Origin: Thermoproteaceae archaeon
Lineage (GTDB): Archaea; Thermoproteota; Thermoprotei; Thermoproteales; Thermoproteaceae
Direction: 5' to 3'
Assembly (NCBI GenBank): GCA_020833025.1
Contig: JAJHRB010000053.1
Span: 1-10,620, forward strand
Length of the DNA: 10,620 nucleotides
Below the pieces are notes generated by a model. That model was not told the DNA's origin and did not search any database. It worked only from the letters and a program-made list of their open reading frames with translations. How positions within the stretch are numbered: the stretch's first letter is position 1; every line of letters begins with the position of its first letter. Positions 186 to 10,581 of this stretch are shown here, in pieces. A program made the translations under genes and the position numbers.

Positions 186-1415
186 ATGATGTGGGAACAG
201 TACTTCTACAAGCTCACCGACCGGCAGCGCGTCGAGATAGTCAAGTGTCTCGTGGAAAGCCTGGGCGTCTCCATCGCCGACATAGCCAGGGCGGCCGGCG
301 TCTCGAAGATGGCCGTGTCCAATTGGGTGAGAGGCGTGAACGCGCCGCAGGTGGACAGACTGATAGCCCTCCACAGCGCCATGCCCGAGACCGTGGCCAG
401 GTGCCTGCCGGAGCCGCCGGCTGGCAGGCTTGAGGTGGACATGGCCCTCTCCACCCTGGCGCGGGCCGCCAGGGATCCCGCCCTCAGGGACTACATTCTG
501 CAGCAGCTCGAAACGCTCTTCCCGGGGCAGATCAGGCGCCAGCTGGCGTACCGCGTTGAGCGTGAAGACATTGAGGCCTTTAGGGGGCGTCTCCTCTCCG
601 AGGGCGTTGCTAAGGAGACTGCCGACGAGTACCTGCGCTACCTCGTGAAATTTCTAAGCGCCGCAGGCTGGGTCATCTCGCCCGACACGGTTCAGAGGGT
701 CTACGCCATAGAGACGCCCCACGTCAGGCGGAAAACCGCCGTCGCGCTGAAGCGCTTTATCGACACCGTCGTGAGGACGCGCGAGCCCCAGCTCGCCGCG
801 CTGCTGTACGACGCGTTCACAACGCCTAAGGTCAAGGCGAGGAATAACTTCCGCGTCCCCTCGCTCGAGGAGGTCAAGAAGGTCTGGGAGGAGACGAGCA
901 AAATCTCGCCGTGCGCCGCGGCGGTGTGGGGCATCATGGCGGAGACCGGCGTCCGTCTCGACCACCTGCTTAGGGCGAGACTGGACGGTCTCCAGCTCGA
1001 CAGGCGCCGGCTGCTCCTCGGCGAAACGGAGGGCCCGAAGAGACAACCATTGGTATTTTTGACGGAGGGCGCCGCGAGGTACTTGCGCGACGTGTATCTC
1101 CCCTGGCGCGAGAGGTTCTGCCGAATGCTGAGGCTCAGCACCGACAAGCTGTTCCCGTGCCGCGAGGAGACGCTGTACCAGTGGCTGAGGGAGGCGAGAC
1201 AGAGGGCTGGGCTTCCCTGGCTCGAGCCGAAACTGCTGAGGAAATTTGTGGCGCAGTGGCTGCTCGACCGCGGCGTCGACGTCGCGGACATCGCCGTGCT
1301 TCAGGGCCGCTCGCTGCCAGGAGGGCTAGCGGTGACGGTGGAACACTACATCGCGGACTTCGAGCGCAGGCTGCGCGCCGTTTTCGAGCAGCACGCCCTG
1401 CGGGTGTTCCCGTGA
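186..1415 (+). CDS. int: Tyrosine recombinase/integrase with N-terminal XRE-like HTH (unsplit, pNOB8-type organisation), 409 aa
   Basis: HTH SIADIARAAGVSKMAVSNWVRG; catalytic-type motifs TGVRLDH (R), GPKR (K), KLLRKF (R), LQGR, EHY (Y); adjacent to att. An in-frame TAA at 135-137 shows the ORF does not cross att. Confidence 0.93.
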   Translation: MMWEQYFYKLTDRQRVEIVKCLVESLGVSIADIARAAGVSKMAVSNWVRGVNAPQVDRLIALHSAMPETVARCLPEPPAGRLEVDMALSTLARAARDPALRDYILQQLETLFPGQIRRQLAYRVEREDIEAFRGRLLSEGVAKETADEYLRYLVKFLSAAGWVISPDTVQRVYAIETPHVRRKTAVALKRFIDTVVRTREPQLAALLYDAFTTPKVKARNNFRVPSLEEVKKVWEETSKISPCAAAVWGIMAETGVRLDHLLRARLDGLQLDRRRLLLGETEGPKRQPLVFLTEGAARYLRDVYLPWRERFCRMLRLSTDKLFPCREETLYQWLREARQRAGLPWLEPKLLRKFVAQWLLDRGVDVADIAVLQGRSLPGGLAVTVEHYIADFERRLRAVFEQHALRVFP

Positions 1416-1479: not shown

Positions 1480-1511
1480 GGAAAGAGAAATGTTTAAGTA
1501 TTTGCCAGTAT

Positions 1512-1594
1512 AAAAAGACGGGCCGGGGAGGGTCAGCCTGCGCGGGTTAGTTCACGGGTCGCCTCAACACCCTCTCATCACCCCCGGCCCGTCT
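1512..1594 (-). ncRNA. Candidate box C/D guide sRNA
   Basis: Minus strand reads GUGAUGA (box C, 1581-1575), 12 nt, GCGA (D'-like), CCC, GUGAACU (C'-like), 12 nt, CUGA (box D, 1536-1533). It is enclosed by a perfect 13-bp terminal stem (1594-1582/1528-1516) ending in a U5 run (1516-1512). Confidence 0.65.
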
Positions 1595-1851
1595 CCGTCT
1601 CCTCTACTCACGCACACCTCGACTCCCTGCCCTGCCTATACAAAACTAACACCAGCGGCATGCCCGCGATTGCATGGCGATTATGGCAATTAATGGTGCA
1701 TTACAAACGCCCCCGCGGGATGTTTCCCCAACGGCGCAGTGCTGCTAGCGCGCGCCTCGGCACTTTCTTGAGCAACCTGGCAAGCCCGGCCGCCACCCGC
1801 CCGAAGATTGGAGGCGCGCACCTCAGCGCGAACTCCCTCTCCGCCGGACTT

Positions 1852-2589
1852 TCATAGCAGCCTTTTCTCCTGCAACTTCAGAAACAGCTTCTCGATGCCG
1901 AAAATTTCGGCGAACTCATCCAGGCCTAGCGCCCTGAAAAAGCTTTCTGGACGCAACCCCCCGACAATGCCCCTGAAGAGCTCGGGCCTCGCGAGCTCCG
2001 GCTTGACCGCGTAGGCCTCGGGGCCGTCGGGTATTACGATAGGCCGAAGGTCGGGCGTGAGAATAGCGCCCCAGAACCAGGGCGGGACCCTTCTCAGAGC
2101 CCCTCTGAGGTCTTCCAAGGCCAGAGCCCCCGGCCCGAGGGCTTTCACAATACTTTCTACTCTCTCCACGTCGAGGACCATGTACAATTCCTTGCGTCTA
2201 ATGGACCGATTTACCCAGGAACTTATAACAAATTCCTGGAGAAATTTGATGACTTCATTTGTCGGAGCAAGCACCCTTCCAGCATACTCCTCAAGCCACC
2301 TCTCCTGAAACCTCTCCGCATCCTCTCGCAGCGCCTCTGCGAGCACGTCGAGGCTCAAGCCTTCAACTACGGGTTCGTGCTCCTTAGTCCTTTCATCTGT
2401 TACGTGGCTGAAAATCTTACCATCTTTAAAATATACCGTGACGTGGAGCCCGGGGTCCTTGCCCTCAATAATAGGCTTAAACACGAAACCGTCTTTCGTT
2501 TGAGCAAAGACAAATGTTATCGAAAACCCCTCCTTGTATTTAATTTCCAGCACTCTGCGAGGGCTCACGCGGCCTTCCGGCACCAGCAA
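1852..2589 (-). CDS. Hypothetical protein, up to 245 aa (low-GC cargo); start possibly GTG at 2568
   Basis: Long ORF with natural globular composition. CTTAATT TATA-like box at about 2588-2594 fits a leaderless GTG at 2568. No family recognised. Confidence 0.8.
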   Translation of the reverse strand: MLVPEGRVSPRRVLEIKYKEGFSITFVFAQTKDGFVFKPIIEGKDPGLHVTVYFKDGKIFSHVTDERTKEHEPVVEGLSLDVLAEALREDAERFQERWLEEYAGRVLAPTNEVIKFLQEFVISSWVNRSIRRKELYMVLDVERVESIVKALGPGALALEDLRGALRRVPPWFWGAILTPDLRPIVIPDGPEAYAVKPELARPELFRGIVGGLRPESFFRALGLDEFAEIFGIEKLFLKLQEKRLL

Positions 2590-10493: not shown

Positions 10494-10552
10494 TGGCGCC
10501 GGGGGTGGGATTTGAACCCACGCCCCCTCGACGGGGACGGGATCTCGAGTCC
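10494..10552 (-). repeat. Right att site (within the intact tRNA)
   Basis: 59-bp identity to 69-127. Confidence 0.97.
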
Positions 10553-10581
10553 CGCGCCTTGGGCCGCTCGGCCACCCCGGC
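10494..10581 (-). tRNA. tRNA-Ser (anticodon CGA), intronless, CCA encoded, 88 nt
   Basis: Acceptor stem GCCGGGG/CCCCGGC, G discriminator plus CCA, anticodon arm CGGGA-CTCGAGA-TCCCG (anticodon at 10547-10545), long variable arm, GGTTCAAATCC T-loop. Confidence 0.97.

Follow-up and report, generated by a model that had tools for sequence, protein, structure and literature searches.

The window, that is, the whole stretch of DNA analysed here (10,620 nt), is a complete integrative element. The element (10,425 bp) is inserted in a tRNA-Ser(CGA) gene, is bordered by perfect 59-bp direct repeats (69-127 and 10494-10552) and contains an sRNA gene, which is convergent with the integrase gene and lies just beyond the integrase stop codon. 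A prim-pol and an SF1 helicase were also detected among its coding sequences by domain search. Directly upstream of the sRNA gene, on the same strand, is a 245-aa open frame (orf245); neither this frame nor six other unassigned ORFs matched any entry of Pfam or NCBIfam, no usable relatives of orf245 were found in the Atlas, its structure model was of low confidence, and the frame may be no gene at all. No likeness to RNP proteins was detected among the element ORFs with Pfam and NCBIfam. The genome of the host, which we take to be a hot-spring Pyrobaculum, is assembled into 126 contigs (1.56 Mb, 94% complete) and encodes fibrillarin. The features of the locus are as follows.

69-127: attL, which repeats 59 bp of the tRNA-Ser gene (3' part) perfectly
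186-1415, plus strand: tyrosine integrase with an N-terminal HTH (Pfam Phage_integr_3 / Phage_integrase)
1514-1596, minus strand: complete box C/D sRNA gene with its 15-bp terminal stem (inverted repeat), from the hit of covariance model R1 and the fold
1596-1582, minus strand: 5' strand of the stem
1575-1581, minus strand: C box GUGAUGA (sequence read)
1563-1574, minus strand: D' guide GAGGGUGUUGAG, adjoining the C box (pairing to tRNA-Leu(CAA) nt 32-42)
1559-1562, minus strand: D' box GCGA, degenerate, GA kept (12-nt spacing from the C box)
between the D' and C' boxes, minus strand: CCC linker
1549-1555, minus strand: C' box GUGAACU, degenerate, UGA kept
1537-1548, minus strand: D guide AACCCGCGCAGG, adjoining the D box (pairs with CCUGCGUGGGUU of five tRNA-Leu)
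1533-1536, minus strand: D box CUGA (sequence read)
1532-1514, minus strand: 3' strand of the stem
1512-1516, minus strand: oligo-T run directly after the 3' stem (sequence read), likely an archaeal terminator
1852-2589, minus strand: orf245
10494-10581, minus strand: tRNA-Ser(CGA), the integration target (attR, 10494-10552)

The two guide stretches of the minus-strand gene were read at 1537-1548 and 1563-1574 (plus-strand letters, CCTGCGCGGGTT and CTCAACACCCTC, respectively). We assign 1514-1596 as an intact archaeal box C/D sRNA gene. A RUGAUGA-type C box near the 5' end and a CUGA box near the 3' end are joined by the stem, the internal D' and C' boxes retain the GA and UGA for the K-loop, both guide spacers are exactly 12 nt, and each guide has a partner among the stable RNAs, with Watson-Crick pairing at N+5 (see below). 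The predicted fold has -42.9 kcal/mol (z -2.9; 0 shuffled sequences folded equally well) with the 15-bp terminal stem, and covariance model R1 matched 1517-1593 with 67.8 bits. The D' box varies among the relatives described below (GUGA in the paralogs, GGGA in Pyrobaculum calidifontis copies). Degenerate C' and D' boxes are known to weaken D'-guided activity. In the Rfam scan, the best match of the sRNA was Pyrobaculum sR36 with 19.3 bits, below the gathering score of 55; this is weak counter-evidence, because archaeal C/D families are mostly species-specific. The Rfam match of a G/C-rich hairpin within the integrase gene (990-1031, minus strand) to mir-351 was spurious (25.9 bits; gathering score 70).

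A preliminary description of this DNA had proposed that both guides are antisense to tRNA-Leu, probably tRNA-Leu(CAA). The tRNA sequences that it assumed proved correct for the host: each of the five tRNA-Leu has GGCCUGCGUGGGUUC where the variable arm meets the T stem, and the anticodon arm of tRNA-Leu(CAA) is CUCAAGACCCUG (in the host after removal of the intron at 34/35; directly in the intron-less P. calidifontis gene). The search of host RNAs for complementary sites, which had been set beforehand, was performed as a genome-wide scan, and the D-guide target was found at five tRNA-Leu loci with 0 mismatches and one G-U. The reconstructed genes are the isoacceptors UAA, CAA, UAG, CAG, and GAG. 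In all five, the guide pairs at 12 of 12 positions with the target C-C-U-G-C48-G49-U50-G51-G52-G53-U54-U55, and the N+5 nucleotide is C48 in a G-C pair, as had been proposed. With shuffled guides, the probability of such a match was ~0.0002 when only tRNA-Leu was considered and ~0.001 for a set of 30 tRNA genes. The D guide would direct a 2'-O-methyl group onto C48 of all five host tRNA-Leu, of which the mature sequences are identical or nearly identical to those of the five intact P. calidifontis tRNA-Leu. A scan of 62 genomes of the order for this C48 guide joined to a D box gave no other carrier, and we regard the guide as new. Four near-matches to it in these genomes were rejected as the antisense strand of tRNA-Leu genes, a judgement made from 16-mers alone. 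The tRNA-Ser of the window had been dismissed as a target, and rightly so: it pairs over only 9 contiguous positions, and three box-proximal pairs are missing.

The D' guide pairs with nt 32-42 of tRNA-Leu(CAA) (CUCAAGACCCU) except at G37, in agreement with the preliminary description. In total, 10 of 12 positions pair; the mismatches are G37 and the C-box-proximal end, and the duplex is broken into 5+5 by the G37 mismatch beside the target nucleotide. The N+5 nucleotide is A36, in a U-A pair. For both guides, the best match among stable RNAs falls in one tRNA family: the D guide fits every tRNA-Leu, and the D' guide specifically fits CAA, or UAA with one additional G-U at position 34. Taken alone, the D' match is weakly significant (p 0.03-0.1 with shuffled guides). 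From the bulge-helix-bulge geometry, we infer an intron at 34/35 in both the CAA and the UAA gene of the host; because of this intron, the D' site would be present only in the spliced tRNA. Once splicing has taken place, the D' guide is predicted to bind tRNA-Leu(CAA) at its anticodon loop and, through one wobble pair, tRNA-Leu(UAA); nt 36 is the candidate site. A shift of the D' register to nt 34 was considered and rejected: the sole GA-bearing D' box, G(C/U/G)GA, lies exactly 12 nt past the C box in all copies. To our knowledge, Nm36, Cm16, and Cm48 are not established tRNA modifications. Codon usage lends no support to a proposed tuning of UUG decoding, UUG being ~5% of the Leu codons in the element and in the host alike (p 0.07).

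As a separate observation, the host has only one tRNA-Leu gene in one piece; the other four are split after ~nt 26. The 5' halves were located at C89:44350 (plus strand) and C89:55050 (minus strand), and the 3' halves, which are separately promoted, at C34:22756, C89:48536, C89:53516, and C102:3202; the half genes have G/C-rich leader and trailer sequences. The intact gene is at C100:10709-10812. In P. calidifontis, all five tRNA-Leu genes are intact and intron-less with the same mature sequences, and the split of the host genes is thus considered to be recent.

Past the att core, the host assembly forks into the window contig (C17), C69 (= L064; joins C61), and C78. The tRNA-Ser and the upstream flank at the window end also form the beginning of C69, and C78 carries the other flank of the window; the fork looks like a graveyard of earlier stacked integrations or an alternative strain haplotype. 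C69 holds two more copies of the sRNA, at 723-799 (plus strand) and 1243-1319 (minus strand), and between them a relic of the window integrase (876-1004, minus strand). The integrase-sRNA arrangement of the window recurs there as a relic; this recurrence, and an intact integrative element as the carrier, are new. The host has only these three copies; each is at the one tRNA-Ser site and linked to an integrase or an integrase relic, and their inverted repeat is long and unlike that of the P. calidifontis copies in sequence. One of the C69 copies (C69a) has the D guide of the window and the D' guide GAGGGAACUCAU; the other (C69b) has the D' guide GAGGGAACUCAG and the D guide AGACCUGGCGCG. tRNA-Leu(GAG) is matched in the register 32-43 by the D' guides of both copies, again with a mismatch at G37; relative to the window guide, they are changed opposite nt 34, 36, and 38, which are the exact differences between tRNA-Leu(CAA) and tRNA-Leu(GAG). 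The D guide of C69b fits the D loop of tRNA-Leu, from C12 to nt 20b, with C16 at N+5.

Sister elements were found in the same genome: C12:10058-11269 (integrase, 71% identity), C63:528-4518 (prim-pol/helicase/orf386, 55-63%), C35:2161-6132 (a more distant replicon), and C19:38731-38994 (an integrase fragment). The sRNA is absent from all of them, and also from sister elements of G015 and G006 and from an integrase relic of P. calidifontis. No close relatives of the integrase were found in the genome-contig and viral-contig collections, the sRNA had 0 matches in the phage and plasmid collections, and the prim-pol had 0 matches in the plasmid collection. Pattern scans of IMG/VR for the sRNA gave nothing genuine (13 seed hits were spurious), and the metagenome scan returned solely contig C69 itself.

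Relatives of the sRNA were found by BLAST in genome G017, which we take to be that of P. calidifontis; the match to copy L003 has 92% identity across 24 nt, and that to the copy at G017:605088 has 70% across 71 nt. The alignment of the host and P. calidifontis copies (A1) has 22 invariant columns, and the D' guide GAGGGAACUCAG of C69b is identical in copy L023. Covariance model R1, built from A1, recovered 14 P. calidifontis and 3 host copies and 0 in 26 other genomes of the taxonomic family; its E-values are rough, and the recovery of both groups is circular because the model was built from both. One degenerate copy was found in genome G002, and the family is patchy (2-3 of 29 genomes). The 14 P. 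calidifontis copies match the ~15 'MITE-like sRNA elements' described by Lui et al. 2018 (PMC6009581).

Eighteen family copies were scored against 30 P. calidifontis tRNA genes (introns left in, set incomplete), since direct 12-mer pattern searches for tRNA-Gly were too noisy. The best tRNA match of the D' guide was the anticodon-loop register 32-43 in 15 of the 18 copies (shuffled guides, 1.8%), and that of the D guide was the D-loop (C16 at N+5) or C48 register of tRNA-Leu or tRNA-Gly in 14 of the 18 (shuffled guides, 1.1%), with the D guide in the same tRNA family as the D' guide of its own copy in 12 of these 14; the counts overstate independence, because the copies are related and the independent units are the six anticodon classes matched by the D' guides (Leu CAA, UAG, GAG, and CAG; Gly GCC and CCC). 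This family-wide covariation gives strong backing to the D' match. It had been argued from the window alone that two guides would hardly fall on one tRNA by chance, and the D' guides of the paralogs, which covary with other Leu and Gly anticodons, bear this out. Every copy directed to Leu or Gly has nt 36 as the N+5 nucleotide of its D' guide (D' box GNGA, 12-nt spacer). A37 is paired in the Gly-directed copies, and a purine is always opposite G37 in the Leu-directed copies; G37 is presumably m1G in the mature tRNA, which would fit its unpaired state. Several P. calidifontis copies match poorly with their guides.

Known groups of RNAs were compared. The P. calidifontis family includes sR131, sR133, sR137, sR139, and sR141, and its members are expressed, one of them accounting for 13.6% of the small-RNA reads; they are described as having conserved terminal inverted repeats, degenerate internal boxes, and 'orphan or non-conserved tRNA targets' (PMC6009581). 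Like them, the window RNA has a G-rich terminal inverted repeat and 12-nt guides, with C and D boxes that are canonical and C' and D' boxes that are degenerate. It differs in being located inside an intact integrative element beside an integrase gene in another species, in the inverted repeat (GGGCCGGGGG in the window RNA, GGGGGAGGGG in the MITE-like sRNAs), in the better preservation of the C' and D' boxes, and in the C48-directed D guide, which is new relative to the P. calidifontis family. The two-guides-one-tRNA design of the family, with the D' guide fixed on the register 32-43, is regarded as new; it is not stated in the main text of the paper (PMC6009581). What was already known is that the MITE-like family exists and that tRNA-directed C/D guides are common in Pyrobaculum, where 32 of 110 chromosomal families target tRNA at 23 positions (PMC6009581). 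These chromosomal sRNAs share with the window RNA the machinery and the kind of target, with sites such as G51 and nt 34 in the stems and loops of tRNAs; ~80% of them have a single tRNA guide, and it is rare for both guides to address one tRNA.

A further comparison is with Pyrococcus abyssi sR47, which together with related sRNAs guides Nm34 of tRNA-Leu(CAA) and tRNA-Leu(UAA) (PMC3413156, PMC7994747). Both sR47 and the window RNA are box C/D guides to the anticodon loop of tRNA-Leu(CAA) that work with L7Ae-Nop5-fibrillarin (predicted for the window RNA). sR47 is chromosomal and targets C34 with its D guide, whereas in the window RNA the D' guide is used with a two-nt shift (N+5 at nt 36, not at position 34 as in the sR47 type), a mismatch at G37, and a second guide on the same tRNA. 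That the register 32-43 points to nt 36, and not to the wobble base, is new. Reprogrammed guides methylate the D, variable, and T loops of tRNA-Leu in vitro, and sR47 methylates C34 (PMC3413156); the optimal duplex is 8-10 bp, with methylation opposite the fifth guide position upstream of D or D' (PMC7089733).

We consider with a probability of about 0.58 that the element carries as cargo a functional-looking box C/D guide gene that would operate through the host RNP, with both guides directed to tRNA-Leu, and that belongs to a mobile family. Box C/D guides are usually regarded as host housekeeping genes. The RNA would assemble with the host L7Ae-Nop5-fibrillarin into a canonical sRNP, because the element encodes no recognisable RNP protein. 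In each copy of the mobile family, the two guides would share one tRNA (Leu or Gly) as their target. The most plausible gain for the element may be that tRNA bonds become nuclease-resistant or that tRNA-Leu function is otherwise altered; shielding from tRNA-cleaving nucleases is a reasonable guess, because loss of fibrillarin in human cells makes tRNAs more open to cleavage by angiogenin (PMC10576143). A bolder version, which we put forward only tentatively, is that the family is a re-targetable dual-guide module which hijacks the host C/D machinery and modifies chosen host tRNAs at the unusual positions nt 36, C16, and C48, which could make them resist tRNA-cleaving nucleases of defence systems or toxins, or could shift decoding in favour of the element. 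If this were true, it would represent a mobile-element-driven edit of the host tRNA epitranscriptome.

The alternative that survives best, although we think it unlikely, is that the sRNA does nothing in trans and is a MITE-like repeat, either selfish or in decay; the boxes would then only stabilise the transcript or serve transposition, and the match would have been inherited or copied from tRNA sequences and be unselected. The family was published as MITE-like, with its conserved terminal inverted repeats and degenerate internal boxes (PMC6009581), its distribution is patchy, the guides of several P. calidifontis copies match poorly, and the D-loop-type D targets and the D' targets are collinear with the tRNA, as those of an antisense copy would be. 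However, the complementarity to tRNA ends at the borders of the 12-nt guides and extends neither into the boxes nor into the linker, which argues for selected guides and makes a passive origin as an antisense of tRNA less likely. Moreover, the switch from Leu to Gly was made by both guides together, six different anticodons are tracked by the D' guides, and the window copy and C69a have exchanged the D guide for one to a non-collinear site of tRNA-Leu, which is the best match of all (12/12).

Less probable still is non-catalytic antisense action, in which an abundant RNP or RNA would sequester, chaperone, or shield tRNA-Leu without methylation. The central mismatch of the D' duplex and the unusual position of its N+5 nucleotide would suit such a role, dual guides on one tRNA would suit a clamp, and one family member reaches extreme abundance in P. 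calidifontis (PMC6009581); against this, a methylating RNP needs both the exact 12-nt spacing and the canonical C and D boxes seen here, and the D guide is fully paired around N+5. That the true targets are mRNA, rRNA, or element transcripts, with the tRNA-Leu matches due to chance, is very improbable: outside tRNAs, the D guide has one perfect 12-nt match (C29:3047) and one with a single G-U (C61:51506), but these were rejected as being at about the genome-wide chance expectation and within ambiguous ORF sequence; the host assembly lacks the 23S and half of the 16S rRNA (its tRNA set is also incomplete), but no 16S or 23S site with <=1 mismatch was found in the rRNA operons of five Pyrobaculum relatives or in the partial 16S of the host; and the five tRNA-Leu hits with the family covariation are far beyond chance.

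The main reading, a mobile guide gene for tRNA-Leu, suggests that mobile DNA borrows the RNA-methylating machinery of the host to act on chosen host tRNAs. In the family design, one arm is directed to the anticodon loop and the other to the tRNA core, and the design has been re-aimed at six anticodons. If active, ~80 nt of cargo would allow mobile DNA to write new ribose methylations on selected host tRNAs. This would also account for where the enigmatic P. calidifontis 'MITE-like sRNAs' came from and why they favour tRNAs, and the idea is directly testable in that cultivable organism.

Several further observations were made on related sRNAs. P. calidifontis L026-L030 and L080-L082 form a second MITE-like subfamily with both guides on tRNA-Gly: the D' guide pairs at up to 11 of 12 positions with the GCC or CCC anticodon loop (C36 at N+5), and the D guide at up to 11 of 12 with the D loop (C16 at N+5). 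In the same genome, two MITE-like copies are located ~2 kb from tRNA-Leu(CAA) (G017:603113-603197, 605080-605156, and 605719-605794), and of the two substitutions private to this tRNA-Leu(CAA) gene, one is in the D loop and one in the variable arm, both within target sites of the family D guides; several other copies lie 0.4-3 kb from tRNA genes. In a sister genus, a chromosomal C/D sRNA (L002; G018:C57, ~1500-1560, plus strand) has the D'-linker-C' module GCGACCCGUGA in common with the window RNA; its guides are unrelated to those of the window sRNA, and the common module hints at module shuffling between sRNAs.
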